A stretch of DNA of 64,000 nucleotides from a virus. Made by a program: the position numbers and the translations under genes. Positions within the stretch are counted from its first letter, which is position 1. The number at the start of each line of letters is the position of its first letter. Positions 41,090 through 56,434 of the stretch are shown one piece after another. The stretch spans positions 50,833 to 114,832 of IMG/VR virus record IMGVR_UViG_3300035698_017726, one strand, 5' to 3'. The notes below the pieces were generated by a model that was not told the origin of the DNA, ran no database searches, and saw only the letters and a list, made by a program, of their open reading frames with translations.

Positions 41090-41098
41090 GTTTCTCCC

Positions 41099-41169: not shown

Positions 41170-41180
41170 TCAAAGTAAGA

Positions 41181-41254
41181 TGGTTGCGGGAGCGAGATTT
41201 GAACTCGCGTACCAAGGGTATGAGCCTCGTGAGTGGCCACTACTCTATCCCGCG
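41181..41254 (-). tRNA. tRNA-fMet(CAT), initiator-like
   Basis: C1:A72 mismatch, CGCGGG start, loop CT-CAT-AC. Confidence 0.85.
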
Positions 41255-41313
41255 ACACATCTAAAATGGGAGCACTCCAGTAAAGGTACAGCTCCCGTAG
41301 GTTTCTGTCAAAT

Positions 41314-41395
41314 TGGTGGGAAGAGGCAGCGGTAAAACTGCCCCAGGTCGCTGTCGACTTAGCGCCTGTCGACATATAGCGCCTGTTTTCTTCCC
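41314..41395 (-). ncRNA. D-armless tRNA-like RNA with CCA end
   Basis: GGGAAGA/TCTTCCC-ACCA; T-like arm GGCAG/CTGCC; one long irregular stem in place of the D and anticodon arms. Confidence 0.55.
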
Positions 41396-41400
41396 ATAAA

Positions 41401-41477
41401 TGGTCGGGGCGACTGGATTCGAACCAGCGACCACCTGACCCCCAGTCAGGTGCGCTACCAAACTGCGCCACGCCCCG
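41401..41477 (-). tRNA. tRNA-Pro(GGG)
   Basis: Loop CT-GGG-GG. Confidence 0.93.
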
Positions 41478-41478
41478 A

Positions 41479-41820
41479 TTATCTCTCGTAAAGAATCCCT
41501 ATGGTCTCGCAGATACGCTGGAGCTTCTGCTCGTTACCTTCTCTCTGGTGCTGAATCCATACCGCGTCAATCTTACCGCAGTGAGATGAATCACTCCGAT
41601 AGCGGTAGTGGTCTTCCTTTGCGACTCCGTCTTCGTCCATGATGCGCTGGTACTCGATGATCGAGTTGAACTCGTCTCCGACCTTTGCATTTGTCTTCCA
41701 GCCAGGAAGTTGCGCTTGATTGCCGTAGTATCTGCTCTCAATGCCGGTAACTCTGTGGAACCCTGGGTAGAAGGCGACGATGATGTCGCCTTCTACCAGG
41801 TCCTGATCGAACTCACTCAC
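41479..41820 (-). CDS. Hypothetical protein
   Basis: 113-aa ORF. Confidence 0.5.
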   Translation of the reverse strand: MSEFDQDLVEGDIIVAFYPGFHRVTGIESRYYGNQAQLPGWKTNAKVGDEFNSIIEYQRIMDEDGVAKEDHYRYRSDSSHCGKIDAVWIQHQREGNEQKLQRICETIGILYER

Positions 41821-41823
41821 TCA

Positions 41824-42639
41824 CTAGAACTTCACCTTCTTGATGAGCTCTATGGTGTAGCCAGCCTCGTCGAGGACGAAGCGCGAGAAGACTTCGTCTT
41901 CAATCAGCTGCCTGCCGACGGCGATGTAGTCCTCGAGGGTGAGCTCGCTGTCGGGGATGATCCTGACTGTCGGAGCCTCGAGGGCCAGTTCCGCAATCTT
42001 CTCCAACCGGGCCAGTGCGTCGACAGGCACGAGCTTGAAGCCTTTGGGAACGACCGAAGCACCTTCGGACGGAGAGGCTGTACTGTCCAGCTTGGCCCTG
42101 AGGGCCAAGATCTCTTCGTTCGCCAGCTCGACCTCCTTTCTGGGCTCCGCCTTCGAACGCCGGGACTTGGCGGTCTTCTTCTTGGGAGGAACCGGAGGCG
42201 GAACCTTGCCCGCTGCCTGGCTCGCTCTCTTCTCGTCTTCCTGGGCATGACGGGCAGCACTGAGACGTGCCCGACGGCTCTTCCACTTCTCGAGGTCAGC
42301 CTTGGAGACGCCCTGCATCCCCATGGCGCTTAGTTCCTTCTCTTCGTGGAAGGTTTTCTTGCCTTCGCTGACGCAGAAGGCCTTGAAGGTCGGGTAGTGA
42401 ACGCCTAGAAGCTTGGTGTTCACGGGAACGATGCCCAGCATCTCCCAGGCGTCCGGCCTCAGACGCTCGAAGCGGCTGTACGAGCACGTCACCGGGTCTT
42501 CGGGATTGTGCTCGTTCCTGTTGAGGAGGTGACGCGTCAGCGCGCCGTAGAGGTGCTGTCCCTTGAGCCAGGGCCACTTCATCAGTACTTCGGTCAGATG
42601 GACGAGAGTCTCGTCCGGAGTCAAGTTTCTTGGCTTCAC
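41824..42639 (-). CDS. Hypothetical protein
   Basis: GTG start after AGGGAG; biased codon usage. Confidence 0.6.
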   Translation of the reverse strand: MKPRNLTPDETLVHLTEVLMKWPWLKGQHLYGALTRHLLNRNEHNPEDPVTCSYSRFERLRPDAWEMLGIVPVNTKLLGVHYPTFKAFCVSEGKKTFHEEKELSAMGMQGVSKADLEKWKSRRARLSAARHAQEDEKRASQAAGKVPPPVPPKKKTAKSRRSKAEPRKEVELANEEILALRAKLDSTASPSEGASVVPKGFKLVPVDALARLEKIAELALEAPTVRIIPDSELTLEDYIAVGRQLIEDEVFSRFVLDEAGYTIELIKKVKF

Positions 42640-42658
42640 AGTATCTCCCTTGTGAAGT

Positions 42659-42735
42659 TGGTGGCTGCAGGCAGAATTGAACTGCCGACCTGCGGGGTAT
42701 GAGTCCGCCGCTCTATCCAACTGAGCTACACAGCC
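42659..42735 (-). tRNA. tRNA-Met(CAT), elongator
   Basis: GGCT start, loop CT-CAT-AC. Confidence 0.85.
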
Positions 42736-43445
42736 GTGGTTTCCGCATGCCACATGACCTTCTGGCCACAGCACACAAACTTGGTACCTTGTATGTTCCA
42801 GGAGCCCAGGAGGTGATGATGTCCGAACGCCCACAGCCTTGGTACGTGGCTGGAGTTCCTGACGACATTATCGAACATCCGGGGTACTGGTTCTGATTCT
42901 CTGCTGGAGTTGTTGTACTTCAGCGGTACTATCAGTGGGCAGTCATGGGTGACGACTACTTCTGGCTTCAGTTTGTCGTAGAGCTGAAAGAACTCATCCC
43001 ACTCTGCATGGGTAGGTTGCTCATACGCCCACCAGCTTTGCCCCTCGACTCTGTACATCTTGTCGATGCTTCTGGCTCCTCCGAAGAAGAGATGAGAGAC
43101 GCCACAGATATACAGTGGCGTAGGGCGCGTAGCCCATTCACATCCGGGAGCGAGTACCACGAGACCGTCATCTTCCTCTGGCGGTTTCTGCTGTTCATCT
43201 CTGAGTCTGCACCAGACGTCGTAGTTTTCGTGATTGCCTCCGCATGTAGTCCAGGTTGGGCCGTCTCGACCTTGCCGAGCTCGCTTGATGAAGTACCTCT
43301 TCAGCTTGTCGGAGGGATTCCAGTGGATGCCTAGGTCCCCGACCTGAACGATGTGCTTCACTCCTTCTCGGGTAGCGAGCTCATCGATCTTTGCCAGGTC
43401 CTCTATGTCCCCATGAATGTCCCCCACGTACCAGATGGTTTCCAT
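42726..43445 (-). CDS. Metallophosphoesterase (calcineurin-like)
   Basis: GDIHG, GD, GNHE, THD, GHHH. Confidence 0.9.
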   Translation of the reverse strand: METIWYVGDIHGDIEDLAKIDELATREGVKHIVQVGDLGIHWNPSDKLKRYFIKRARQGRDGPTWTTCGGNHENYDVWCRLRDEQQKPPEEDDGLVVLAPGCEWATRPTPLYICGVSHLFFGGARSIDKMYRVEGQSWWAYEQPTHAEWDEFFQLYDKLKPEVVVTHDCPLIVPLKYNNSSRESEPVPRMFDNVVRNSSHVPRLWAFGHHHLLGSWNIQGTKFVCCGQKVMWHAETTAV

Positions 43446-43459
43446 TGTCCGCTCCTAAA

Positions 43460-43534
43460 TGGTTGGGGTGGTAGGATTCGAACCCACGAATAGCGGGACC
43501 AAAACCCGCCGGCTTACCACTTGCCGACACCCCA
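43460..43534 (-). tRNA. tRNA-Gln(TTG)
   Basis: Loop TT-TTG-GT, U1-A72. Confidence 0.9.
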
Positions 43535-43541
43535 AAAGTAA

Positions 43542-43701
43542 AGTCTCCCGCGACCAGTGTGCGTCTTGCCTAAGGACGCGAGAGCAGCAGTTCTCCAGGC
43601 CCTACTCCGGACATAGGACGAGGTCCGTCGTGCCGCTTCGCTTGTGTCCGCTCTTTCAAGGATGGCTGCATCGGCCTACCTCCTCGCCGCAGACGGAGAC
43701 T
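43542..43701 (-). ncRNA. Structured ncRNA resembling the 23S rRNA GTPase-associated centre (H42-H44)
   Basis: Terminal stem AGTCTCC/GGAGACT; core GCGAGGAGGTAGGC-CGATGCA-GCCATCCTTGAAAGAG...CACTGGTCG. Confidence 0.6.
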
Positions 43702-43702
43702 A

Positions 43703-43778
43703 TGGTGATCCCAGGGGGAATTGAACCCACCATTGTCGAGATGAAAGCCCGATGTCCTGTCCGTTAGACGATGGGACC
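43703..43778 (-). tRNA. tRNA-Glu(TTC)
   Basis: Loop CT-TTC-AT. Confidence 0.9.
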
Positions 43779-43785
43779 ACAGTTC

Positions 43786-44049
43786 TTATGTCTGTTTCGA
43801 CGCGCCGATGAAGTCCTTGAGGATCTCAGCGTGCGTCTTCTCCTTGCTGAAGTTGGGCAGCTTCCGGATGTCGAACTCTTGTAGGGAGTTCACGCCTTCT
43901 GGGTCATCTGTGTAGAACCATATCGAAGGCCACTGCTGTGCCGAGTGGTAGATCGGGGCATGTCCCCGGAGGCTCACTGCCATCTCCGGCTTCTCCGGCT
44001 TCTTGTATGGGATCTGTTTGCCTCGGTAGCTCAAGCTGTACCTCGTCAT
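43786..44049 (-). CDS. Hypothetical protein
   Basis: 87-aa ORF. Confidence 0.45.
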   Translation of the reverse strand: MTRYSLSYRGKQIPYKKPEKPEMAVSLRGHAPIYHSAQQWPSIWFYTDDPEGVNSLQEFDIRKLPNFSKEKTHAEILKDFIGASKQT

Positions 44050-44178
44050 GGATGATGTTGAGTAGGCTGTGCTCCCTGCCTACGCGTTCTACTAAGCCAG
44101 CGAGCTCGAGGTCGCTGATGGTGGATGCTGCCAGGCTCTGGGGAGCCCAATAGACTCTGTTCCCCTTGCTGTGGATGA

Positions 44179-44367
44179 TCACAGGTTCACCTTTCTCGGC
44201 GCCTTGTTGGGGTGAATCTGCTGCAGATTGAAGTTGATGTCGTCGCTGAGTCCCCACGCTCCAGCCAGCGCTGCCTTGACGCCTCTGGCGATCATCCTGG
44301 CCGCTACGTCATCTACCGCTGGGAACCTAAAGCGTACGCTCAGGAGGTAGGATCTTTTGCCGGACAT
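44179..44367 (-). CDS. Hypothetical protein
   Basis: 62-aa ORF with RBS. Confidence 0.4.
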   Translation of the reverse strand: MSGKRSYLLSVRFRFPAVDDVAARMIARGVKAALAGAWGLSDDINFNLQQIHPNKAPRKVNL

Positions 44368-44540
44368 ATAGTCAGCCTCTCCTGCAGTGCTTGGTCTAGG
44401 AGTTCCTCGGACAGCCCCATAACCAGTACCAGTTTCCGGAGGATGATGTTCTGCCTCCTGAGGTCGGGCACATAGCTGAAGTCCCCTGGGAACTGGTCTC
44501 CGTTGTAGACTTCCTCGAACTCTTCTTCAGTGACTATCAT
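44340..44540 (-). CDS. Hypothetical protein
   Basis: GGGAGAG RBS, 66 aa. Confidence 0.45.
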   Translation of the reverse strand: MIVTEEEFEEVYNGDQFPGDFSYVPDLRRQNIILRKLVLVMGLSEELLDQALQERLTICPAKDPTS

Positions 44541-44558
44541 GTTCTCTCCCGTAAATAA

Positions 44559-44635
44559 TGGCACCCCAGAGAGGACTTGAACCTCTGGCCTACTGATTAG
44601 GAATCAGTTGCTCTATCCAACTGAGCTACTGGGGC
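44559..44635 (-). tRNA. tRNA-Arg(CCT)
   Basis: Loop TT-CCT-AA. Confidence 0.93.
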
Positions 44636-44644
44636 ACACTGTCC

Positions 44645-44857
44645 TTATGACAGGTCTTCTTCCCCCTCGCTGTCGAGCTCTACGTTGTCGTAGCAGAACT
44701 CGAGGCCCTCAGCGAGGTGAAAGGCATCCGCCTTGCGACGGGCTATCCGGAGCATCTTCCGCCTTGCGGAGGAACCGGGGGGTGGAGCACAGCATGGACA
44801 TTTCATTCCACCTGGGCCAGTGAGGATTAGCTTCTTAGCTACGTCATAGTTCGTCAT
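44645..44857 (-). CDS. Small hypothetical protein (GPGG.KCPCC motif)
   Basis: 70-aa ORF. Confidence 0.5.
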   Translation of the reverse strand: MTNYDVAKKLILTGPGGMKCPCCAPPPGSSARRKMLRIARRKADAFHLAEGLEFCYDNVELDSEGEEDLS

Positions 44858-44927
44858 GTTAGGTATTACCGTCGGTAGGCGGAAGTGCCTTCAAAGTCGG
44901 TAAAAGTACTGATGCACCCTCATGATT

Positions 44928-45425
44928 TCATTCTCCCGTATCTTCCTCCACTTCTTGTGGAGGGAGTCTCATGATTAGCGGCCTTGGAAGCATGATAGAA
45001 GGATAAGTCTCTTCATGCATCGTGCCAGTATCCACGGGGACCACAAAGTCAGGCGCTGGAGTTGGTGCCGGTGTCGATTCGGGCTGGGGAGCGGACCAAG
45101 CTGGTTGAGCTGCTGTCGTTGATGGCGACGAGCCTATCGCGGGTATGACAGGAGCTTCCACTGTTTCCACTGCCTCTGCCGGAACGTCCATCGGTATGCC
45201 CTCCGTAGAGCCTCCGAAGACCCCGAAGAAGTCGAGTTTCATACTGATGCCGAGCACTCCGGCAAAGAGAAGGAAGAGTCCACCTAAGACGCAGGCAAAG
45301 AGCCTGATCGGGGACTTCTTCTCTTGCGAAGAGTTCGACTGCTGTTCTTTGATGACGTCCAGAAGCTCCCGTACTGGGTCGTGTCCCTCACTGTGGGCTT
45401 CTGGGTCTTTGATATCCTTAGGCAT
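44928..45425 (-). CDS. Membrane protein with Pro/Thr-rich tail
   Basis: AAGGAGG RBS; single transmembrane helix. Confidence 0.6.
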   Translation of the reverse strand: MPKDIKDPEAHSEGHDPVRELLDVIKEQQSNSSQEKKSPIRLFACVLGGLFLLFAGVLGISMKLDFFGVFGGSTEGIPMDVPAEAVETVEAPVIPAIGSSPSTTAAQPAWSAPQPESTPAPTPAPDFVVPVDTGTMHEETYPSIMLPRPLIMRLPPQEVEEDTGE

Positions 45426-45452
45426 GATACCTCCTTGAAGGAGTATATCTGA

Positions 45453-45529
45453 TGGTCCGGGTAACAGGACTTGAACCTGTGGCCTCCTGCTCCCGAAGCA
45501 GGCGCTCTACCTGACTGAGCTACACCCGG
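45453..45529 (-). tRNA. tRNA-Pro(CGG)
   Basis: Loop TT-CGG-GA. Confidence 0.92.
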
Positions 45530-45532
45530 AAA

Positions 45533-45610
45533 TGGTTGAGACGCTAGGATTCGAACCTAGGAATAACGGGATCAGAACCCGCTGGCTTAACCGGACTTGC
45601 CTACGTCTCA
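45533..45610 (-). tRNA. tRNA-Gln(CTG)
   Basis: Loop TT-CTG-AT. Confidence 0.9.
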
Positions 45611-45640
45611 ATAATGGTCCTTACCTCTCAAAGCCTAAGA

Positions 45641-45717
45641 TGGTGGGACTGAGTAGATTTGAACTACCGACTTCCTGCTTATCAGGCAAGCGCTCTAACC
45701 AACTGAGCTACAGTCCC
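45641..45717 (-). tRNA. tRNA-Ile(GAT)
   Basis: Loop CT-GAT-AA. Confidence 0.93.
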
Positions 45718-45776
45718 GAGTTGCCGGGGTTTAAGGTCCTTTGCCGGAAGGACATAGCACAGGTTTGACGCTGTGA

Positions 45777-45854
45777 TGGGGTGAGTAGGGGGATTCGAAC
45801 CCCTCAGCCTCTCGGACCACAACCGAGCGCTCTACCTAATGAGCTTTACCCACC
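45777..45854 (-). tRNA. tRNA-His(GTG)
   Basis: Loop TT-GTG-GT, G-1:C73. Confidence 0.9.
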
Positions 45855-45862
45855 ATAGTTAA

Positions 45863-45937
45863 AGGATGACCGGTAGGTTTCGAAGCCTACATTGTACCGG
45901 CGACGGCCGGGTGCTTTGCGCTATTAAGCTACGGTCA
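45863..45937 (-). pseudogene. Degenerate tRNA-like element (4-nt anticodon loop CGTC)
   Basis: TGACCG/CGGTCA, D stem GCTT/AAGC, CCGGC/GCCGG, GTAGG/CCTAC; no CCA. Confidence 0.5.
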
Positions 45938-45938
45938 A

Positions 45939-46014
45939 TGGCTGGACCTCTCGGACTTGAACCGAGGACAAACGGATTAACAGTCCGCTACTCTGCCAAC
46001 TGAGTTAAGGTCCA
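45939..46014 (-). tRNA. tRNA-Asn(GTT)
   Basis: Loop CT-GTT-AA, G73. Confidence 0.92.
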
Positions 46015-46027
46015 ACAAGAAAAGGGA

Positions 46028-46194
46028 TGAGGGAAACACGAGTTACGTACACGGCATTTGGCGTTGCGGAGGCACGAACGCTAATGTTCTCCGTGTACTC
46101 AGTAGCGGCAGGAAACTTTGGCCTCTCTGGCGCCCTGCTTCGCTCTTTGTTTACTCGCGCTCTTTACTCGGGGCTGCATACCCAAAGTCCCTCA
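46028..46194 (-). ncRNA. Unknown multi-stem structured RNA candidate
   Basis: TGAGGGA/TCCCTCA closing stem, GCGAGT/ACTCGT, GTACACGG/CCGTGTAC, GCAGG/CCTGC; lies between tRNAs. Confidence 0.45.
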
Positions 46195-46195
46195 A

Positions 46196-46272
46196 TGGTA
46201 CTCCCGACGGGACTCGAACCCGCAGCCTTCGGCGTGAGAGGCCGACGATCTAGCCGATTAATCTACAGGAGC
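46196..46272 (-). tRNA. tRNA-Glu(CTC)
   Basis: Loop CT-CTC-AC. Confidence 0.9.
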
Positions 46273-46279
46273 ACGCTGT

Positions 46280-47050
46280 CTATCCTTCGAGCAGTTTCAC
46301 TCTTCCCTGGAGTGCGCCCGCTACGGAGGCGAGGTGGGCCTGGAGCTCGGAGCTCGAGGTCAGCGCCTGCTTGGTGAGCTCGACGGTGACAACCCTGGAG
46401 ATCTCATCTGGGTCGTCGATGAGCTTGTTCAGTTTGCTTTTCTTCGTGAAGAGCTCTTCGAGGTGCTCGGTTCTCCAGTCGATGAGCGCCTGGGCCTCTT
46501 TTTGCTCTTCCGGTGTGACGGGCATCTTGAGCGAGCGAAGAACGCACTCAGGCAGCAAGGCCCCGAGATGAGGGACGGTCACGTTTTCGTCCTCGTCCTC
46601 GCCCTCTATCTCGCTGATAGAGATCGTCCATACCTTCGGAATTCCCCACCTCAGCCCATCGCTGATATGTCTTCTGTGGGTCCCGAAGGTGTGAACGAAC
46701 CAGTACTGGGGCCCAACGTAGTACCTGTTGTCGTCGTCCTGGTCCACGTACGAGGTACAGAGTGCGCGCTCCATGTTCGTGGTCCAGGTAGGAGTCTTGA
46801 ACTTCTTCTCGATGGAGAGGGACAAGACAACGGTGTAGGCTTTGATCAGATCGTTGATGGGGCCACGGTACTCCTCGTCAGCCCGATTCTTGAGCTTCTT
46901 CATGAGGGCCCTGATGCGGTTGAACAGCTCCCTGTCTTTCACATCGATCTGAGCTTTGACGTCGACGAGCTCAGCTTTGAGCTGAATCATGTACTGGTCG
47001 GCCAGTAAAGTCGCTACATCGCTATTGCTGATGACAATCTTCGTGTCCAT
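46280..47050 (-). CDS. Hypothetical coiled-coil protein
   Basis: 256-aa ORF. Confidence 0.6.
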   Translation of the reverse strand: MDTKIVISNSDVATLLADQYMIQLKAELVDVKAQIDVKDRELFNRIRALMKKLKNRADEEYRGPINDLIKAYTVVLSLSIEKKFKTPTWTTNMERALCTSYVDQDDDNRYYVGPQYWFVHTFGTHRRHISDGLRWGIPKVWTISISEIEGEDEDENVTVPHLGALLPECVLRSLKMPVTPEEQKEAQALIDWRTEHLEELFTKKSKLNKLIDDPDEISRVVTVELTKQALTSSSELQAHLASVAGALQGRVKLLEG

Positions 47051-47839
47051 TTATCGGTTTCTCCGGCGAGCCTTACGGTCGCCCGGTGAGTGTGTTCTGA
47101 AGCTGTGCTTGTCGAAGCCCTTGGAGTGCGCTTTCAGCTCATCGCTGATGGGCGCTGGAGGGTCGACCTGCCTAGCCATGTTGTTTCCGAGGAACATGTC
47201 CAGTTCCTGGAAGGTAGCCCACGTATCCACCTCTGCTTGGAACCCCAGCGGCTTGAGCGGAGGGTTCAGGATGATGGTGGGCCCACTGTGGTCACGGCTT
47301 ACCTGGATTACGGGCGCTTCAAACTCCCTGAAGAGCTCGTCAGGTACTTGCTGTGACTGATACTTCTCTACCCATCTGTTCCAGCCCGCAGCGTTGAAAG
47401 GGTACTCCCTCCAGCTGTTGGGCGTCTTTTCTCTCTGACTTTCGAACCACTTCTTACCCAGTGGCCGACGTCCCCATCGGTTGACCAGTCCGTGTTCCTG
47501 GGCGGTGTCGAGGATGAGCTCCGGTGAGGCACTGGCCAAAGAGATAGGAGTCTGTCTGCAGTCTACTTCCTGGTTGGCCTCGAAGGAGTACCAGCCGTAG
47601 ATTCTGCCGCAGAAGAGGACCAGTCTCCGTCTACACACTCCGGTCAGGTCGTTGGGGAATCCCGGCATAGCGCCGAACATGTCGTGGTAGGGCTTGAGCA
47701 TTGGCCAAATCTTCCGGAGGGCCGGGCCATCATTGGCGTCGCCAGCGCTGATGATTTTCTTGTGTCTCAGGTACACCAGCCGGTCAGTGGGGTCCTGGCA
47801 TCCGTCGTAGAAGTCTCTGTGCTTGCTAATGATCCTCAT
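47051..47839 (-). CDS. Phage-type hypothetical protein
   Basis: MRIISK.RDFYDG start, KGFDK.SFR end. Confidence 0.65.
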   Translation of the reverse strand: MRIISKHRDFYDGCQDPTDRLVYLRHKKIISAGDANDGPALRKIWPMLKPYHDMFGAMPGFPNDLTGVCRRRLVLFCGRIYGWYSFEANQEVDCRQTPISLASASPELILDTAQEHGLVNRWGRRPLGKKWFESQREKTPNSWREYPFNAAGWNRWVEKYQSQQVPDELFREFEAPVIQVSRDHSGPTIILNPPLKPLGFQAEVDTWATFQELDMFLGNNMARQVDPPAPISDELKAHSKGFDKHSFRTHSPGDRKARRRNR

Positions 47840-47854
47840 GCTGTCCTCATTGAA

Positions 47855-47930
47855 TGGTCGGGGTGACTGGATTCGAACCAGCGACCCCCTGCTCCCAAAG
47901 CAGGTGCGCTACCAACTGCGCCACACCCCG
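47855..47930 (-). tRNA. tRNA-Pro(TGG)
   Basis: Loop TT-TGG-GA. Confidence 0.94.
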
Positions 47931-48148
47931 ACAAAGTGCAGGAGATGAAGAACCTTTTCAGGCAGGTTCTCTTTTCGCCTTCTCCTGCAGAAGGCTAGCC
48001 CAACCGCTACGCTCCCTATGATCCAATGGCAGACCAATGTCGAACATCTTGCGATGCACCTACGACATACAGAAGCTCGAAAGCGAAGAATGGGTCTTGA
48101 AGGAGTGAGCTTCTGCTCGACCACGCAGCAACGCTCCGCGACGAACTG

Positions 48149-48225
48149 TGGTGAGACGACCCGGAATCGAACCGGGGACCCACGGCTTAAAAGGCCGGTG
48201 CTACTACCAACTGAGCTATCGTCCC
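48149..48225 (-). tRNA. tRNA-Lys(TTT)
   Basis: Loop CT-TTT-AA. Confidence 0.9.
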
Positions 48226-48229
48226 TAAA

Positions 48230-48451
48230 TGGTGGAACCGCTCGGACTCGAACCGAGAACCTCTACAACCAAATTGTATCGCTCTACCTGTCGCCCCTAC
48301 TGCTTTGGGGTTTGCCAAAATTCAGTGCTCCTCTCCAGCCCCCGCCACGGTATATGTGGTTTGGGTGCGGGTTCGGTCACGATCTCCCTCATGGCCAAAG
48401 GGTAACTTATTCGTTGGTAGCAGTAGAGGACTGTGATTGAGCTACGGTCCC
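48230..48451 (-). ncRNA. tRNA-like RNA with ~145-nt structured D-loop insertion and G3.U70 acceptor
   Basis: GGGACCG-TA-GCTC-AA[insert]GGTA-GAGC...CTCGG-TTCGAGT-CCGAG-CGGTTCC-ACCA. Confidence 0.7.
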
Positions 48452-48462
48452 AAAAGTGAAAA

Positions 48463-48542
48463 TGGCGAAGCGTACGGGATTCGAACCCGTCTGAATGTCC
48501 GGCGTGACAGGCCGGTGTCCACACCTAGCAGACCCACGCTCC
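48463..48542 (-). tRNA. tRNA-Asp(GTC)
   Basis: Loop CT-GTC-AC, G73. Confidence 0.88.
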
Positions 48543-48553
48543 TGAATAAAGGG

Positions 48554-48627
48554 TACCCCCTCTCGGGATCGAACCGAGGACCTATGGATTAAGAGTCCAG
48601 CGCTCTAGCCAGCTGAGCTAAGGGGGC
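48554..48627 (-). tRNA. tRNA-Lys(CTT)
   Basis: Loop CT-CTT-AA; 3' end ACCC. Confidence 0.88.
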
Positions 48628-48694
48628 ACAAATAGGCCAAATGTTTGAAGAGCAAAGCTCTCCTTGCATCCTTCTTATGTCAGTTCTCCCTGAA

Positions 48695-48871
48695 CTATTC
48701 TTCGAGCTCCACCTCTAGTTCTCCGGGGTCGTCAGAGCTATCGTCTTTGGCGTCTAAGTCGAAGGTCTCAACCTGCTCTTCCGCCACGATCTTTGCTTCT
48801 GCCTGAGTATCGGCCTCGACGTCGAAGTTTACGCGCTGTTCTCTTCGGTACTGACATCGATATGTATGCAT
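48695..48871 (-). CDS. Small acidic hypothetical protein
   Basis: 58 aa MHTYRCQYRREQRVNFDVEADTQAEAK...; GGGAGAG RBS. Confidence 0.5.
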   Translation of the reverse strand: MHTYRCQYRREQRVNFDVEADTQAEAKIVAEEQVETFDLDAKDDSSDDPGELEVELEE

Positions 48872-48887
48872 AGTCTCTCCCTTTAAG

Positions 48888-48964
48888 TGGCGACCCCAGC
48901 AGGATTCGAACCTGCGGCCTTACGCTCCGGAGGCGTACGCTCTATCCAGTTGAGCTATGGGGCC
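48888..48964 (-). tRNA. tRNA-Arg(CCG)
   Basis: Loop CT-CCG-GA. Confidence 0.93.
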
Positions 48965-49029
48965 GGAGTGGGAGCTCGCGATGGCCTATTAAGGCACGCT
49001 CCCAACCAATCATATTCGTGTTTCAAAGA

Positions 49030-49106
49030 TGGCATGCCCGGAGGGAGTCGAACCCACGACAACTCGGTTCGTAGCCGAGTGCTCTGTCCAGCTGAGCTAC
49101 GGGCAC
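49030..49106 (-). tRNA. tRNA-Arg(ACG)
   Basis: Loop CT-ACG-AA. Confidence 0.92.
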
Positions 49107-49117
49107 ACATACTTCTC

Positions 49118-49180
49118 AAAGAAAAAGGCCCCAGGAGAAAACTCCTGGGGCCTTTTAGCGTCGTCCTAAAGGACCCCAGG
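49118..49180 (-). terminator. Attenuator B: intrinsic terminator with competing antiterminator
   Basis: Terminator AAAAGGCCCCAGGAG-TTTT-CTCCTGGGGCC-TTTTTCTTT; CCTGGGGTCCTTTAG right after the leader stop is complementary to its left arm. Confidence 0.85.
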
Positions 49181-49270
49181 TCAGCTCGGCTCGTCATTGC
49201 GCACGATACCTTCTTGCTGCCGCTTAGCTGCGGTTACATGAGGCATCGTGGTTGGTCTGACGTCGAGCAT
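49181..49270 (-). CDS. Leader peptide B (29 aa, MLDVRPTTMPHVTAAKRQQEGIVRNDEPS)
   Basis: GAGGA RBS; 26 distinct codons in 29, almost all cognate to downstream tRNAs. Confidence 0.8.
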   Translation of the reverse strand: MLDVRPTTMPHVTAAKRQQEGIVRNDEPS

Positions 49271-49300: not shown

Positions 49301-49329
49301 GTTGTATAGAATCCTGGGATTCATGTCAA
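49301..49329 (-). promoter_or_regulatory. Sigma70-like promoter of tRNA operon B
   Basis: TTGACA-17nt-TACAAC. Confidence 0.7.
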
Positions 49330-49908: not shown

Positions 49909-50312
49909 AAAAAGGGAAGGGGTCCGGAAGCTATTGCCCATCGTCCGGACCCCAGTTTGTTTATCGCGATTTCAACGCCTCACGGCTTTCGTCTCGGTTT
50001 AAGTTGACCATGACCGCTCTTTCGCTGAGCTACCGGGCCATAATGGAGGCCCGGACGGGATTCAAACCCGTGACTGTCTTGTTTAATCCGAGCACTGTGA
50101 TTGAGGCGACACGACGAATACTCAACTTGTCAGAGTTAGCTTGAACTTCATTGCCGTCTGTCCGATGGGCCCGATGCTCTACCGTTGAGCTACCCCGGCA
50201 TAGAATGGTGCCGGGGGACGGAATTGAACTCGCCTACCTTCGGGAGTATGGTGGACAGATTTTTGTGGCGTCAGATTCAGGTTCAGTTTCAGCTTGTCTG
50301 ATACGTTGATTC
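49909..50312 (-). ncRNA. ~400-nt RNA with two circularly permuted tRNA modules, hexamer repeats and a terminator
   Basis: T arm-CCCCGGC-ACCA-ttctat-GCCGGGG-D arm; T arm-CCGGGCC-TCCA-ttat-GGCCCGG-D arm; ends in a GGGGTCCGGA/TCCGGACCCC hairpin plus T tract. Confidence 0.75.
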
Positions 50313-51621: not shown

Positions 51622-51707
51622 TGGCGGAGGGAGAGGGAGTCGAACCCTCAAGGCTTGCGCTCGGCTGATTTCGAATCAACTGCAGTCACCTATCTGCTTG
51701 CCCCTCC
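51622..51707 (-). tRNA. tRNA-Ser(CGA)
   Basis: Loop TT-CGA-AA, long variable arm, G73. Confidence 0.9.
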
Positions 51708-51940
51708 ACATGCTTTCATCAGCTCTTCTATCTCCCTAAGGAACCTAGAGTCCAGAGCTGCCATAGTCTCGTCGGACATCATGTTCGTATAGGCAGCAGC
51801 GAACTTCTGGTTCTTCATGAAGTCTCTGCCGTCCAAGAGATCCTGCTTGGTGAAGACCAAGGGCTCGACGGTCCAGATAGGAAACTGCGGCCATGCTCTG
51901 ACCGACCCATCGTTCCAGGACCATCTCTCGACCATGTAGA

Positions 51941-52261
51941 TCATGGGTCCGGGATCGTGATCTGAGAGTTGTCCTTGTTACAGGGGTGGCGCAGAGCTTG
52001 GGCCATCAGAGCGATGATGTGGTCCTTAGCGAAGTCACTGACATCAGTGCTCCAGATAGGGGCGTCCATTGAGTCCTGTCCCTCTCTCATCTCTACTATA
52101 GGTCGTACCTCCCCAGTAGTTGCCCCACGTTTAGATAGGGCCAACACTACCCGGTAGATGTTGCAAAGACTGTCCCGTGGGGCGTCCAAGTCTATTTCTG
52201 CGATGACTCTGGGAAAGGTTGTGTCATCTGGTAGGGCGCAACCAATTTGTCCTGAGAACAT
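51941..52261 (-). CDS. Hypothetical protein
   Basis: 106-aa ORF, translationally coupled to neighbours. Confidence 0.45.
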   Translation of the reverse strand: MFSGQIGCALPDDTTFPRVIAEIDLDAPRDSLCNIYRVVLALSKRGATTGEVRPIVEMREGQDSMDAPIWSTDVSDFAKDHIIALMAQALRHPCNKDNSQITIPDP

Positions 52262-52545
52262 TACCAGGTCTCGTAGTCGGTGAAGTCCAACACTTTGCCG
52301 GATTGGAGATGGGTCGCGGTCTTGACGAGGCCTATCCCCGTGGGGACGAACATGAAGGCTACTCCCGCAATCCCTTTACCAGCGATGATTGATTCCTCAT
52401 CGCTGAGCTCCGCCCACCTCTTGACTCTTGCGCACTCTTCTGGCGTAAGCTCGAAGCGCACTCTCCAGGTTCCTTGGTGCGAGAAACAGGCACTTCCGTC
52501 GCTACTATCGTCTAGTTTGCTCTGTACAATTTTTTCGTCTTCCAC
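52261..52545 (-). CDS. Hypothetical protein
   Basis: AAGGAG RBS; F.PTGIG...LDFTDYE.W motif. Confidence 0.55.
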   Translation of the reverse strand: MEDEKIVQSKLDDSSDGSACFSHQGTWRVRFELTPEECARVKRWAELSDEESIIAGKGIAGVAFMFVPTGIGLVKTATHLQSGKVLDFTDYETW

Positions 52546-52558
52546 TTTCGCTCCTTGT

Positions 52559-52644
52559 TGGCGGAGAGCAGGGGAGTCGAACCCCTAAGGCTTTCGCTCG
52601 ACTGATTTCAAATCAGCTGCCGTCACCCATCGGCTTGGCTCTCC
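52559..52644 (-). tRNA. tRNA-Ser(TGA)
   Basis: Loop TT-TGA-AA, long variable arm. Confidence 0.9.
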
Positions 52645-52649
52645 AAGAT

Positions 52650-52733
52650 TGGTGCCTAGGAAGGGACTCGAACCCTCACGGCCGAAGCCACCCAGTTTTA
52701 AGCCAGGCATGTCTGCCATTCCATCACCTAGGC
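52650..52733 (-). tRNA. tRNA-Leu(TAA)
   Basis: Loop CT-TAA-AA. Confidence 0.9.
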
Positions 52734-52777
52734 AGTGTGATGTTTGTACTGTGTACCCATTATCTGGATACTGAATG

Positions 52778-52865
52778 TGGCGGAGAGTGAGGGATTCGAA
52801 CCCTCGTACCTTACGGCGCACCGCTTAGCAGGCGGGCCTCTTTGTCCTATCTCGAGCAACTCTCC
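52778..52865 (-). tRNA. tRNA-Ser(GCT)
   Basis: Loop CT-GCT-AA. Confidence 0.9.
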
Positions 52866-53167
52866 TAATTTCCGTCTTTTGGGAACTCTTCGACTACCCC
52901 TCCGATGGGGGTGCGGGTACCAAACATCTCCTCCATCTTGTCGTTGTCCACATACATCTTGGTGATGGTACCTGCGACGCCTCTTTTTCCTTCATCAAAG
53001 AGGATAACTGGTGCCTGTTCCCCGTTTCTTTTGTGCGCCTCAATCACAGCTTTGTCGTAGTAGTTCGTGCCCTTCATGCGGACAGGACCCATGTTCTTAG
53101 CCCTCTCTCCGGGGCAGACGATGTACCAGTGGTCCCCGCGTGCTTCGACGGTCCACTTCTTATCCAT
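52865..53167 (-). CDS. Hypothetical protein
   Basis: 100-aa ORF. Confidence 0.45.
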   Translation of the reverse strand: MDKKWTVEARGDHWYIVCPGERAKNMGPVRMKGTNYYDKAVIEAHKRNGEQAPVILFDEGKRGVAGTITKMYVDNDKMEEMFGTRTPIGGVVEEFPKDGN

Positions 53168-53296
53168 TGAGCTTCTCCAGCTCAGCGTCCTTGCGCATGA
53201 TGACCTCGGCTAGGTCTCTGATGGCGCTGTTGTACCTGTTCATGATTGCCGTCTCCATAGCAATTCTGTCGGCTACCCACAGCTACGGCCTATAAA

Positions 53297-53373
53297 TGGC
53301 ATGTCTGGGAGGAATTGAACCTCCAACCTTCGGATTTGGAATCCGGTGCTCTGCCTAATTGAGCTACAGACAT
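53297..53373 (-). tRNA. tRNA-Trp(CCA)
   Basis: Loop TT-CCA-AA, G73. Confidence 0.9.
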
Positions 53374-53379
53374 ACAATG

Positions 53380-53487
53380 TGGTGGAGAACAGAGGGACTC
53401 GAACTCCTCATTCACCGGCCAAGCTACCTCACAGGAAAACCTGGGTAGCTTCGCTACGTGCTCTTTCCGATTAGAAGGATGCTCCCC
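53380..53487 (-). ncRNA. Anticodon-less tRNA-like RNA with Ala-type acceptor (G3.U70)
   Basis: GGGGAGC/GTTCTCC-ACCA; TTCGAGT loop; long hairpin AAGCTACC-CAGG-TTTT-CCTG-GGTAGCTT replaces the anticodon arm. Confidence 0.65.
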
Positions 53488-53491
53488 ACAA

Positions 53492-53575
53492 TGGTGTGCA
53501 TGGAGGGACTTGAACCCTCATGTCCTAAGACACGAGGCCCTCGACCTCGCGCGTCTGCCATTCCGCCACACGCAC
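53492..53575 (-). tRNA. tRNA-Leu(GAG)
   Basis: Loop TC-GAG-GG (unusual C33), long variable arm. Confidence 0.85.
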
Positions 53576-53580
53576 ACAAA

Positions 53581-53778
53581 CTATCCAGGTACTGCGAACT
53601 TTCTTACGGTTCGCCTACCCAATTGGACCTCATCGCCAGGCTTTACGTCGGCCATGATGTCCTTCACTACCTTGCCATTGATCTTGACCCATCCCGAGGC
53701 CAACAGTCTGCGGGCCTGAGAATGGGACTGTACTACTCCGGCGTCACCCATGGCCTTGACGGCTTTGATGAACTCCAT
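53581..53778 (-). CDS. Stand-alone S4 RNA-binding domain (TyrRS C-terminal-like)
   Basis: GVVQSHSQARRLLASGWVKINGKVVKD...GDEVQLGRR; GGGAGAG RBS. Confidence 0.8.
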   Translation of the reverse strand: MEFIKAVKAMGDAGVVQSHSQARRLLASGWVKINGKVVKDIMADVKPGDEVQLGRRTVRKFAVPG

Positions 53779-53798
53779 AATCTCTCCCGTTGAAATGC

Positions 53799-53889
53799 TG
53801 CAGACCACCCACTTCGGAGTGCCCACTCGCCTATGTAGGAAGCCCGCCCCTTGCGGGACAGGGCGGGAGTTGAACCCGCATAGTCTGCA
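53799..53889 (-). ncRNA. Permuted tRNA-like RNA (YrlA/Y-RNA-like topology)
   Basis: TGCAGACT/GGTCTGCA closing stem, T arm GCGGG-TTCAACT-CCCGC, acceptor-like hairpin closed by GCAA. Confidence 0.55.
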
Positions 53890-53893
53890 TTGA

Positions 53894-53982
53894 TGGTGGC
53901 CATGGGGAGACTCGAACTCCCAAGGGGATGCATGCCCCACTGCGCCCTGAACGCAGCGCGTTTACCTTTTCGCCACATGGCC
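53894..53982 (-). tRNA. tRNA-Leu(CAG)
   Basis: Loop TT-CAG-GG. Confidence 0.9.
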
Positions 53983-53987
53983 TAAAA

Positions 53988-54071
53988 TGGTGCGCAGAGA
54001 GGGACTTGAACCCTCACACCCGAAGGCACCGGGTCCTAAACCCGGCGTGTCTGCCATTCCACCACCTGCGC
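53988..54071 (-). tRNA. tRNA-Leu(TAG)
   Basis: Loop TT-TAG-GA. Confidence 0.92.
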
Positions 54072-54187
54072 ATTTTGTCTCTTTCGCCGGCGACGATCCG
54101 GCTAAACACCGTCCCCGCCATCAAGGCTCGCAAACTCCCCGACCCGCCTGGCGTACACCCAAGGCGGCAGAAAGAGATCAGGCGATA

Positions 54188-54262
54188 TGGAGATGACGAT
54201 GGGAATTGAACCCACGCTAATGGGTTTTGCAAACCCATGCCTTACCGCTTGGCTACGTCATC
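54188..54262 (-). tRNA. tRNA-Cys(GCA)
   Basis: Loop TT-GCA-AA, U73. Confidence 0.9.
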
Positions 54263-54265
54263 CAA

Positions 54266-54341
54266 TGGTGGAGCTGGGGGGAATCGAACCCCCGACCCCC
54301 TGAATGCCATTCAGGTGCTCTCCCAACTGAGCTACAGTCCC
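54266..54341 (-). tRNA. tRNA-Ala(GGC)
   Basis: Loop AT-GGC-AT, G3.U70. Confidence 0.92.
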
Positions 54342-54430
54342 ACAATGCTAATTCAAACCTACTCAGTAACTATAGCCTGCTTTCGGTATACATCTATCTT
54401 GTGCCGTTTTGAGCAGGTCTTTTCAAGTAA

Positions 54431-54506
54431 TGGTGGTTAGGGGCGGAGTTGAACCGCCGACATAGGGATTTTCAGTCCCCCGTTCTACCAACTGAACTAC
54501 CCAACC
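54431..54506 (-). tRNA. tRNA-Phe(GAA)
   Basis: Loop CT-GAA-AA. Confidence 0.92.
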
Positions 54507-54653
54507 ACGGCGTCACCAAGGTGGCAGCAAGCCACCTATCTGCCTCACTCTTAGAGCTCTACTCAGGCCTCTTGGGGTCCGGGTAGAGACTCCTACTGGA
54601 GAGGAGATGGATATTTCTCCGCTCGAGAAGTCTATCAACATGTTTCTCCCCAA

Positions 54654-54739
54654 TGGCGGAGACGACAGGATTCGAACCTGCGGAGCTTTCACCCTCCTGC
54701 TTTCCAAGCAGGTGCCATAAGCCTCTCGACCACGTCTCC
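54654..54739 (-). tRNA. tRNA-Ser(GGA)
   Basis: Loop TT-GGA-AA, long variable arm. Confidence 0.92.
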
Positions 54740-54961
54740 TTATTGAAGGCTGAGCTGCCTGTGCCTTTCTTGCTCGTAAGCCATGAAGATCCCATCCAGT
54801 ACTGATGGGCACATCTCCAGTTGCTGCTCAGCTATCTTGAACTCGATATTCCCTGGTCCTCTGAAGTAGAGCTGGTCGGCGACCTTCTTCAGCATCCTGA
54901 CTCCCATCTGGTACTCTTCCAGAATGCTGTTCGTCCCTTCAACGGTGAGTTCAGAGGCCAT
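54740..54961 (-). CDS. Hypothetical protein
   Basis: AGGAG RBS, 73 aa. Confidence 0.5.
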   Translation of the reverse strand: MASELTVEGTNSILEEYQMGVRMLKKVADQLYFRGPGNIEFKIAEQQLEMCPSVLDGIFMAYEQERHRQLSLQ

Positions 54962-55002
54962 GGAATCTCCTAGAGCGTCCGTCCAGTCTACCGTGTAGCG
55001 GA

Positions 55003-55091
55003 TGGTGGGGGTAGAGGGAATCGAACCCACTCGGGACTTTAAGCCACCGGCTTTACAGGCCAGCCCGTCTTCCTTAGCGGTCTACACCCCC
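55003..55091 (-). tRNA. tRNA-Tyr(GTA)
   Basis: Loop CT-GTA-AA, long variable arm. Confidence 0.88.
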
Positions 55092-55099
55092 ACAGTAAA

Positions 55100-55184
55100 T
55101 GGTGCGCGAGGAGGGATTCGAACCCTCACGACTCTAGGCCACTGGAATTTGAACCCAGCGCGTCTGCCATTCCGCCACTCGCGC
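55100..55184 (-). tRNA. tRNA-Leu(CAA)
   Basis: Loop TT-CAA-AT, long variable arm. Confidence 0.9.
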
Positions 55185-55211
55185 GAAAACTACCATCGTA
55201 TTCAGAATGTC

Positions 55212-55246
55212 AAAGAAAAAGGCCCGCCTGGAGGGGCGGGCCTTTT
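55212..55246 (-). terminator. Attenuator A terminator
   Basis: AAAAGGCCCGCC-CCTCCA-GGCGGGCC-TTTTTCTTT; left arm complementary to the leader 3' end GAGGGCGGGCCT. Confidence 0.85.
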
Positions 55247-55269
55247 CATGTCGCGGTTCGCGTTGAGAG

Positions 55270-55347
55270 CTAGGCCCGCCCTCGGATCTCGGCCAGGAGG
55301 CTCGAGGCCCAATAGGAAAAGCAGGACAATGACATTACGCGGTTCAT
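55270..55347 (-). CDS. Leader peptide A (25 aa, MNRVMSLSCFSYWASSLLAEIRGRA)
   Basis: Codons 6-19 all cognate to the 14 downstream tRNAs; likely leaderless mRNA. Confidence 0.8.
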   Translation of the reverse strand: MNRVMSLSCFSYWASSLLAEIRGRA

Positions 55348-55353
55348 GCTCTT

Positions 55354-55383
55354 ACCCTAATGAGGTTCGTCTTCAGGTGTCAA
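55354..55383 (-). promoter_or_regulatory. Sigma70-like promoter of tRNA operon A
   Basis: TTGACA-18nt-TAGGGT; ATG 7 nt downstream. Confidence 0.7.
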
Positions 55384-55593
55384 CAAGGTCGGCGAACTTT
55401 TCTCGCGAACTACGACGCGTGCTCCAGACCAGTCTTCACTGCTAATCGTCCAGAACACGCGTATAACCTCGTATCTACTCTCTCCGACTTCTATCTCTTC
55501 GCCCTCTCTGGGAACCATGCCGGTGAAGTAAACCTTCACGGCTCCGAACTCACTCAGTATCGCGTGGCGCGTTTTTCGGGATGATGTCTTCAA
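55357..55593 (-). CDS. Hypothetical protein
   Basis: VPREGEEI....RYEV.RVFW, similar to the C-terminal part of 34115-34546. Confidence 0.45.
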   Translation of the reverse strand: MKTSSRKTRHAILSEFGAVKVYFTGMVPREGEEIEVGESRYEVIRVFWTISSEDWSGARVVVREKSSPTLLTPEDEPH

Positions 55594-56434
55594 ATCTCAC
55601 CTCATCTACTAAGTAGCCTGACGCACGTTCGTGACCTCCGCCTCCTCTTTGAAGGGCCAAGGCCCCGACGTCGAAGCCATTGGACCTGAGCTCCACCTTC
55701 CCGAACTCAGGAAGATAGACGGCTCCGTAGTTGGCTCCCGCTTCGTTGGCGAGCTGATGTCCTAGCTGAGAAGTATGCCTGGAGGCGATTACCCATGCGA
55801 AGGTGTCACCGTTCTCGTCCACGCCCAGTGTGGCCCGATGCATCTTGGCCCTGATGTAGCCTCTCTCCTGCCTGACAAGGTTGGCGACTACCAACGATTC
55901 TTCTGACGTCAGGAGAGGGGTCGGCTCTCTGTTCAAGAAGTACTTCCGCCCGAAGAATGCCCTCAGCCTGTCCAGGCCATCGCCCACCAGCCAGAGGTCG
56001 GCGTCTTCTCTCAACCATAGGTCTCTGGCATTAACGGCCATCACCCATTCTGGCAGGTGGGGGTACTTCCCCTTCAGCTCCAAGAACGAAGGGAACCAGT
56101 GCTGGAACACCAGAGCTGTACCGCTCATGGAGTCGTCGTAGACGACGGTAGCATGCTCCCACAGGTTCTCTAGCGCCTTCAGCGCAGATCTCTTGTGGTG
56201 GTCAATGATGGTGACTTTCGCTCCCTTGAAGAGAAGTAGCTCGGTCAGCACTTTCTTCCCTGGGACGATATCCGTAAGGATGATCTCGTCGTAGTCCTCC
56301 ATGCATTTCTCGACGGTCCGGTCGATGTCGTTGTACCCGCAGAAGAAAGTCTTTCTCTGCGGGTGAACCATGCCTACCAGTACAGAGCACCCGAAGCCGT
56401 CCAAGTCACTGTGCGTGATGTGCGCTATCTTCAT
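55550..56434 (-). CDS. DHH-family phosphoesterase (NrnB/oligoribonuclease-like)
   Basis: HSDLDG, TD, IDHH, LRS, GGGH..ASG. Confidence 0.9.
   Translation of the reverse strand: MKIAHITHSDLDGFGCSVLVGMVHPQRKTFFCGYNDIDRTVEKCMEDYDEIILTDIVPGKKVLTELLLFKGAKVTIIDHHKRSALKALENLWEHATVVYDDSMSGTALVFQHWFPSFLELKGKYPHLPEWVMAVNARDLWLREDADLWLVGDGLDRLRAFFGRKYFLNREPTPLLTSEESLVVANLVRQERGYIRAKMHRATLGVDENGDTFAWVIASRHTSQLGHQLANEAGANYGAVYLPEFGKVELRSNGFDVGALALQRGGGGHERASGYLVDEVRFEDIIPKNAPRDTE

Follow-up and report, generated by a model that had tools for sequence, protein, structure and literature searches.

A 25-codon open reading frame (ORF) of an uncultured phage, here called leader A, is probably the sensing part of a ribosome-mediated transcription attenuator, which would gate an operon of 14 transfer RNA (tRNA) genes by the speed at which the codons of those same tRNAs are decoded. 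Our confidence in this is good rather than high, since modelling, and not measurement, underlies each step from promoter to readthrough. The window analysed is the final 64 kb of the 114,832-bp IMG/VR virus record IMGVR_UViG_3300035698_017726 (a genome of ~115 kb), and all coordinates are positions within it. It contains 44 tRNA genes called by ARAGORN, 42 of which lie on the minus strand at 36.5–55.2 kb in two arrays, A and B. The attenuator reading is supported by the first rank of leader A in a genome-wide comparison, by a complementary leader B ahead of the second array, by the point at which a modelled ribosome switches the RNA fold, and by the recurrence of the design in the phage contig L051 and in the cultured Caulobacter phage phiCbK. 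The elements of the first operon are the following.

55378–55383, minus strand: -35-like TTGACA of leader A (motif match)
55354–55359, minus strand: putative -10-like TAGGGT, 18 nt past the -35 and 6 nt before the ATG (motif match)
55270–55347, minus strand: leader ORF A, 25 codons and TAG, MNRVMSLSCFSYWASSLLAEIRGRA (predicted ORF)
55291–55332, minus strand: sampler core, codons 6–19 of leader A (codon/tRNA matching)
55272–55283, minus strand: predicted antiterminator strand A (segment 2), GAGGGCGGGCCT, spanning the final codons of the leader and the first nucleotide of its stop (folding)
55211–55247, minus strand: predicted intrinsic terminator A, stem AGGCCCGCC/GGCGGGCCT plus A:U pairs, loop CCTCCA, then TTTTTCTTTG (folding and scan)
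51622–55184, minus strand: tRNA array A, 14 tRNAs with small ORFs interspersed (ARAGORN, confirmed by Rfam)

The match between leader A and the tRNAs that follow it is real and far beyond chance. The ORF, bounded upstream by an in-frame TAG at 55359–55357, begins with ATG, AAC, CGC, GTA and ATG, continues with the core codons TCA, TTG, TCC, TGC, TTT, TCC, TAT, TGG, GCC, TCG, AGC, CTC, CTG and GCC, and ends with GAG, ATC, CGA, GGG, CGG, GCC and TAG, exactly as an earlier, sequence-only reading of this DNA had quoted it for 55347–55270. From 55184 the array runs Leu-CAA, Tyr, Ser-GGA, Phe, Ala-GGC, Cys, Leu-UAG, Leu-CAG, Leu-GAG, Trp, Ser-GCU, Leu-UAA, Ser-UGA and Ser-CGA, i.e., five Leu and four Ser tRNAs together with Tyr, Phe, Cys, Trp and Ala-GGC. 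All 14 core codons are among the 21 codons that these tRNAs can read, and they cover 12 of the 14 tRNAs, namely four for Ser, three for Leu, and Cys, Phe, Tyr, Trp and Ala-GGC, with a single codon for each save two repeats. The anticodons called by ARAGORN, with the tRNAs confirmed by Rfam, agree with the earlier claim of a core read by the 14 downstream tRNAs. The two tRNAs missed are Leu-UAA and Leu-UAG; that they could wobble-read TTG and CTG, as had also been proposed, is in line with standard wobble rules. Twelve of the core codons are exact Watson–Crick complements of array anticodons, the remaining two (TTT and TAT) being read by G:U wobble by Phe-GAA and Tyr-GUA. Some of the codons used are rare in this phage (TCA makes up 7%, TTG 9%, TCG 13% and TTT 14% of their synonymous families), because they are needed to reach particular isoacceptors. 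The order of the leader codons was compared with that of the tRNA genes by eye only, and no obvious correspondence was seen.

The core is the longest run of array-A-readable codons in the window in any of the six frames. The second longest, of 13 codons, falls in a hydrophobic stretch at 21964–21926 and covers 10 tRNAs only. Among the 229,582 14-codon windows of the whole genome in six frames leader A ranks first with its 12 tRNAs, the best unrelated windows reaching 11 (with a stop inside) and then 10. Dinucleotide shuffling of the 42 nt reproduced the 14/14 match in 2 of 200,000 cases, and the chance of such a match from the codon usage of the phage, in which 29.7% of codons are array-A-readable, is 0.297^14 = 4e-8. 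Given 14 codons of this set, at least 12 distinct tRNAs are covered with P = 0.002. A second in-frame ATG is present at 55335; if translation started there, the sampler would follow directly after the start codon.

The window provides its own control in that a near-complete tRNA set is divided between two operons, each with its own leader. The second operon is composed as follows.

49324–49329, minus strand: -35-like TTGACA of leader B (motif match)
49181–49270, minus strand: leader ORF B, 29 codons and TGA (predicted ORF directly upstream of array B)
49170–49180, minus strand: predicted antiterminator strand B, CCTGGGGTCCT, directly 3′ of the stop codon (folding)
49117–49156, minus strand: predicted intrinsic terminator B, 12-bp G+C stem, loop TTTT, then TTTTTCTTTG (folding and scan)
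36521–49106, minus strand: tRNA array B, 28 tRNAs with 26 distinct anticodons (ARAGORN)

Array B supplies Arg, Lys, Asp, Pro, Glu, Asn, His, Ile, Gln, Met, Thr, Gly, Val and Ala-UGC/CGC. In 29 codons leader B covers 21 of its 26 anticodons, which was reached by none of 20,000 windows drawn from the long ORFs of the phage. The leader holds the top-scoring 29-codon windows of the genome for the array-B tRNAs, and only three unrelated windows reach 21. A longer in-frame form starts at 49333, and a Shine–Dalgarno (SD)-like AAGAGGA is found at 49288–49282. Cross-matching is low, as leader A covers 8/26 array-B anticodons and leader B covers 3/14 array-A anticodons. Even a single amino acid is divided by isoacceptor, with GCC and tRNA-Ala(GGC) in operon A and GCA and tRNA-Ala(UGC) in operon B, which argues that the leaders are matched to tRNAs and not to amino acids.

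Folding suggests how the leaders may act. With the right arm of terminator A withheld, which mimics the stage of transcription at which the choice is made, GGGCGGGCC in the last codons of the leader pairs with the left arm, so that the pairing of the last codons with the terminator left arm proposed from the letters alone is reproduced (GAGGGCGGGCCT, 55283–55272). With a ribosome modelled as a mask of ~28 nt, the antiterminator pairing of leader A is kept for A-site codons 2–19 and lost from codon 20 to the stop. Masked folding was a check that the sequence-only reading had put forward, and the switch point coincides with the exact end of the 14 matched codons, 6–19; codons 20–25 are those constrained to encode the antiterminator strand. 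In leader B the corresponding pairing, between antiterminator strand B and the left arm of its terminator, is kept with the A site at codons 2–27 and disappears at codon 28 and beyond, up to the stop. In full-length folds leader A retains the terminator (z = -3.4), leader B is unusually structured (z = -8.6), and in the minimum-energy fold of leader B the SD region pairs with segment 2. The ORFs, the codon/tRNA match with its statistics, the terminators and the alternative pairings that depend on ribosome position are direct results of computation. Leader A was earlier assigned a classical 1:2 / 2:3 / 3:4 layout. The 2:3 and 3:4 pairings appear in the folds, while the 1:2 pairing with GGCCTCG..CCTC is absent from every fold of leader A, that segment making its own hairpin instead. 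Leader A thus resembles a switch of three parts, in which 2:3 competes with 3:4 and a ribosome at the stop would mask segment 2. As there is no 1:2 pairing, the untranslated state would be expected to read through and not to terminate.

The two hairpins are strong (-23.6 kcal/mol at 55247–55216 for A, followed by the T tract; -28.9 kcal/mol at 49156–49123 for B), and they share a 15-mer, GGCCTTTTTCTTTGA, which is found nowhere else in the genome. A consensus promoter/terminator scan listed neither of them on the minus strand and gave the leader-A hairpin on the plus strand only. Since that scan omitted both, canonical terminators were counted in a separate scan of the tRNA strand at 36–57 kb, in which just two strong ones were found, each directly 3′ of a leader. 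From the T tract to the first tRNA there are 27 nt in A (tRNA-Leu at 55184) and 11 nt in B (tRNA-Arg(ACG)), which leaves scant room for a separate promoter. It is conceivable that such terminators simply close off or insulate the transcription units upstream, that the small ORFs are non-regulatory and that the tRNAs are expressed otherwise, from a TTGACA at 55213, from an unrecognised phage promoter or by a phage polymerase that ignores hairpins. In favour of this, the tail of terminator A is overlapped by a TTGACA, terminator B also ends the protein genes that follow array A, and the -10 boxes are weak. However, a stretch of 115–200 nt that includes a TTGACA separates the upstream stop codons from the terminators, which are just 27 and 11 nt away from the first tRNA. 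At 55213 the spacer is 15 nt long and transcription would begin inside the tRNA, and neither the codon match nor the antiterminator pairing is explained. We therefore consider the insulator explanation quite unlikely.

The same arrangement is found in other phages. The window encodes at 51054–50314 a DUF7873 protein (PF25283), which is associated with phage tRNA arrays, and 160 related loci were found. One of them is on L051, a 198-kb contig of an unrelated phage with 36% identity in the DUF7873 protein, where a TTGACA site is followed by a 44-codon ORF, a terminator and an array of 38 tRNAs. The ORF contains all 20 amino acids in 36 distinct codons and covers 33 of the 38 tRNAs (the null maximum was 31 in 30,000 windows), and folding pairs the 5′ arm of the terminator with the final codons of the ORF, the stop included. 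With the DUF7873 protein of L051 as query, L051 alone was matched. In phiCbK (JX100813) terminators are annotated in GenBank directly before tRNA blocks. Gp083 of this phage covers 10/10 anticodons of its block (P = 0.006) and the 32-codon leader of block 3 covers 8/8 (P = 0.003). A codon-matched leader is in this way seen for A (rank 1), for B (0/20,000), for L051 (0/30,000) and for two phiCbK blocks. In phiCbK, Rogue, Colossus and Bajun the peptides of the block-3 leader are homologous, and their Asn codons increase from one to three in the two phages that have a tRNA-Asn; covariation of leaders and tRNAs in the phiCbK family appears to be only partial. The block-3 terminators of the phiCbK family have exactly the stem of terminator A (AGGCCCGCC/GGCGGGCC). 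This is suggestive of common descent with the phiCbK family, yet short G+C-rich stems can converge. Searches of phage collections with DNA and protein gave no close cultured relative of the phage studied here.

The L051 leader and those of the phiCbK-like Caulobacter/Brevundimonas phages resemble leader A in the succession of a promoter-like site, a matching mini-ORF, pairing of the last codons or of sequence close by with the 5′ arm of a terminator, the terminator itself and tRNAs, and phiCbK block 3 has in common with it also the AGGCCCGCC/GGCGGGCC stem, an ATG that is nearly leaderless and the hexamers TTGACA..TAGGGT. They differ in that the peptides are unrelated in sequence and that the tRNA sets and block boundaries are not the same. 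Among the cases examined the window, with its two complementary leaders, is the cleanest.

These recurrences bear on two further explanations. Leader A might be an unselected short ORF that happens to stand beside a terminator; it has only 25 codons, and the observation was made post hoc by scanning for patterns. Since each of the two leaders takes first place in the whole genome, the controls by shuffling and by codon usage are extreme and the design recurs independently in L051 and phiCbK, pure chance must be regarded as extremely improbable. Alternatively, the product of the ORF could be a short hydrophobic peptide that acts in its own right, e.g., in a membrane, and its Ser/Leu/Cys/Phe/Tyr/Trp/Ala composition would agree with the tRNAs only by coincidence. 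The peptide of leader A is moderately hydrophobic, and the 13-codon run at 21964–21926 falls in an unrelated hydrophobic stretch. That run, however, covers 10 tRNAs against the genome maximum of 12 in leader A, the leaders of array B, L051 and phiCbK are hydrophilic and still match their arrays, and the pairing of the last codons with the terminator would be left unexplained, which makes the peptide explanation very improbable.

An ORF–antiterminator–terminator unit is also present inside the tRNA array of five loci (L033, L041, L060, L061 and L068). At 6565–6771 of L041, and at the same place in the other four, there is an ORF of 51–58 residues with repeated (T/S)ENxRI motifs, the last codons of which pair with a strong terminator 8–12 nt ahead of tRNA-Gln. 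The peptide is conserved at the amino-acid level and the changes are synonymous. The first tRNA block of these arrays (Trp, Pro, Gly, Thr, Phe) is served by a separate promoter, TTGACA-N17-TACAAT, which abuts tRNA-Trp. Genes for transfer-messenger RNA (tmRNA) adjoin the DUF7873 gene and the tRNA arrays in L051 (9561–9899, 112.8 bits in Rfam) and L053 (7375–7903, 90.3 bits), and an Rfam scan of seven relatives at the gathering threshold returned tRNAs and tmRNAs only.

Transcription of leader A would start from a promoter of host type. TTGACA is depleted in the genome, with 17 sites observed against ~56 expected, so that its occurrences are likely to be meaningful; this suggests that the hexamer is a genuine signal in the host. 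The TAG of the -10-like TAGGGT doubles as the stop of the upstream ORF. A closely similar arrangement, TTGACA-N17-TAGGGT-7 nt-ATG, precedes the block-3 leader of phiCbK, and within that family the -10 box lies 7 nt before the ATG as TAGGGT in phiCbK, TAGCTT in Rogue and TAGACA in Bajun. Leaderless messenger RNAs (mRNAs) are common in Caulobacter, and a leaderless start at the ATG of leader A is plausible.

The mechanism for which we infer promoter, start site, leader translation, termination efficiency and physiological trigger would be as follows. First, transcription starts from TTGACA-N18-TAGGGT, probably at or near the ATG, and a ribosome translates the 25-codon leader. Second, GAGGGCGGGCCT, which is complementary to the 5′ arm of the terminator, is transcribed ahead of the 3′ arm. 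A ribosome delayed at codons 6–19 would leave GAGGGCGGGCCT free to pair with the 5′ arm, the terminator would be blocked and RNA polymerase would enter the tRNAs. Third, if decoding is fast, the ribosome would reach codons 20–25 or the stop and cover the strand, and the terminator could form 27 nt before the first tRNA. Leader B would do the same for the other 28 tRNAs with a complementary codon set. The net effect may be a negative feedback on tRNA supply, in which slow reading of a block's own codons would cause that block to be made, e.g., when the host tRNAs are scarce, cleaved or outcompeted.

Several observations weigh against this mechanism. The -10 box of leader A agrees with the consensus at three of six positions only, its ATG is not preceded by a good SD, unless the mRNA is leaderless, and codons 2–5 are not array-A codons. 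In the full-length fold the terminated state of leader A is better than the antiterminated state by 9.7 kcal/mol; readthrough would therefore depend on the order of folding, as in classical attenuators. The tail of terminator A forms a second TTGACA (55213–55208) followed by N15-TAGTTT, and this could drive the downstream tRNAs constitutively, though the start would fall inside tRNA-Leu. Recognition of the terminators presumes a suitable polymerase, and the phage might use one of its own here. Comparative evidence is incomplete as well. Close relatives were obtained neither by a search for the locus of the adjacent DHH protein nor by alignment of DUF7873 against viral and metagenome contigs, which gave at most 42% identity; proteins of 54–56% identity were also seen. 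For the Glu/Asp mini-ORF of phiCbK the codon match is not significant, which leaves two significant leaders out of three in that phage, the block-2 leader of CcrRogue retains Ser codons though no Ser tRNA was found in its block, and the conserved 51–58-residue peptide of the five L041-type loci is not a significant sampler (P = 0.008–0.7).

The last of these points can be taken to mean that the leaders are general translation-coupled attenuators, which sense the speed or availability of ribosomes, or amino-acid starvation, and in which the codon match is secondary. In a three-part design any stall, or no translation at all, would give readthrough, the L041-type leaders have the same layout with no significant codon match, and a stalled ribosome cannot distinguish a missing tRNA from an uncharged one. 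A general sensor nevertheless needs neither a complementary pair of leaders nor one codon per isoacceptor, rare codons or a split of Ala, and yet each leader is the genome-wide best match to its own array. We regard such a general sensor as unlikely, and a sensor tuned to the tRNAs it controls remains the preferred explanation.

Attenuators are well known from amino-acid operons, e.g., trpL, hisL, leuL and pheL (for pheL, PMC3082878), and the multivalent leaders of thr (thrL) and ilvGMEDA. In common with these, leader A has a short 5′ ORF with reporting codons, a terminator before the first gene and, by computation, an antiterminator that a stalled ribosome would free, whereas a ribosome at the stop would lead to termination. 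It appears to work like an attenuator of the trp/his type and is most like the multivalent ilv and thr leaders. It is unrelated to them in sequence, and the other differences are threefold. First, amino-acid attenuators regulate biosynthetic enzymes, while here tRNAs would be regulated. Second, they repeat one or a few codons, while leader A samples about a dozen isoacceptors once each. Third, they contain a 1:2 pairing, while neither a 1:2 anti-antiterminator nor a pause hairpin was found in leader A. Control of a decoding component by conditional termination in a 5′ leader, in response to tRNA charging or availability, is also known from pheST and the T-boxes. The pheM leader of pheST contains Phe codons only and controls a synthetase, and T-boxes bind one uncharged tRNA directly and without a ribosome. 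In Rfam there was no family for the leaders (the best scores were 24.1 bits for Thr_leader, where the threshold is 55 and E was 0.45, and 21.9 bits for Leu_leader, the latter on the opposite strand) and no match to a T-box or specifier structure. Leader A is outside any described family, and what is new is the tRNA product, the sampler with one codon per isoacceptor and the absent 1:2 element.

Full-text searches of the literature found no published account of tRNA genes controlled by leader-peptide attenuation. In the phiCbK genome paper terminators are annotated, and attenuation is not discussed. The nearest published case is the trn operon of Anabaena sp. PCC 7120, a long tRNA array that is silent until translation is impaired and is controlled at the promoter by the repressor TrcR, which acts on direct repeats; leader, terminator or attenuation are not mentioned (PMC8421152, PMC10272220). 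The likeness is that of a supernumerary, horizontally mobile tRNA array that is turned on when translation is in trouble, and the difference that a promoter-bound repressor is used there and a leader and terminator would be used here.

For decades there has been debate over the reasons for which phages carry tRNAs and over the circumstances in which they use them, and both codon compensation and escape from tRNA-cleaving defences have been proposed (PMC10264068, PMC11464382). If the present reading is true, a mini-gene lists the downstream tRNAs codon by codon, and slow reading of one of them opens the terminator. The tRNA blocks would then be deployed on demand, for instance if the tRNAs of the host run low or are cleaved by anti-phage nucleases, and would be silenced again after supply has recovered, and a leader that samples its own products would turn the arrays into a feedback-controlled reserve triggered by slow decoding. 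Leader-peptide attenuation would be extended from amino-acid metabolism to tRNA genes, in the form of a natural multiplexed sensor that reads about a dozen isoacceptors through one switch. It is tempting to speculate further that large phages carry a widespread and undescribed class of isoacceptor-resolved sensors of decoding speed; for this wider claim we see the balance as even. As the cultured phiCbK has the same architecture, the idea can be tested in Caulobacter.

The division of the tRNAs between the operons has a feature of its own. Array A contains all ten tRNAs with a long variable arm (five Leu, four Ser and Tyr) together with every tRNA for U-initial codons. In tRNAs that read U-initial codons A37 is normally isopentenylated by MiaA. 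The split between A and B may stem from a common maturation need or a common vulnerability of the array-A tRNAs. Within array A a gene at 53581–53940 on the minus strand encodes an S4-domain protein that resembles the C-terminal domain of Tyr-tRNA ligase (PF01479, E 1.3e-7). Just upstream of leader A, at 55550–56434 on the minus strand, there is a gene with a weak match to DHH/DHHA1 phosphoesterases, and gp060 of phiCbK is a DHH phosphoesterase too. Between the arrays, just downstream of the DUF7873 gene, two permuted tRNA-like modules are found at 49988–50245 on the minus strand, with the order T arm, 3′ acceptor strand and CCA, short linker, 5′ acceptor strand and D arm. ARAGORN made no call here, and Rfam matches to YrlA (Y RNA-like) are below threshold (36.9 bits against 69, E 2.5e-5, at 49988–50094 and 21.2 bits at 50172–50242).

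In array B a TTGACA-N17-TACCTT at 41311–41254 on the minus strand, ~25 nt ahead of a tRNA-Met, is a possible internal promoter, and the array may then comprise more than one transcription unit. The sole plus-strand ARAGORN calls in the island, at 39390–39669, are a tRNA-Asp with the anticodon AUC and an 85-nt tRNA-Lys(CUU); both are opposite in orientation to all other tRNAs and are unusual in anticodon or length. Finally, an apparent interrupted tRNA gene lies at 48450–48232 on the minus strand between tRNA-Asp and tRNA-Lys(UUU), its 5′ half starting with GGGACCGTAGCTCAAT and its 3′ half ending with GGTTCGAGTCCGAGCGGTTCCACCA, with an insertion of ~150–190 nt. Within this insertion a 31-codon ORF (48392–48297) covers 17 of the 22 downstream tRNAs, a coverage reached by 0 of 600 null windows.

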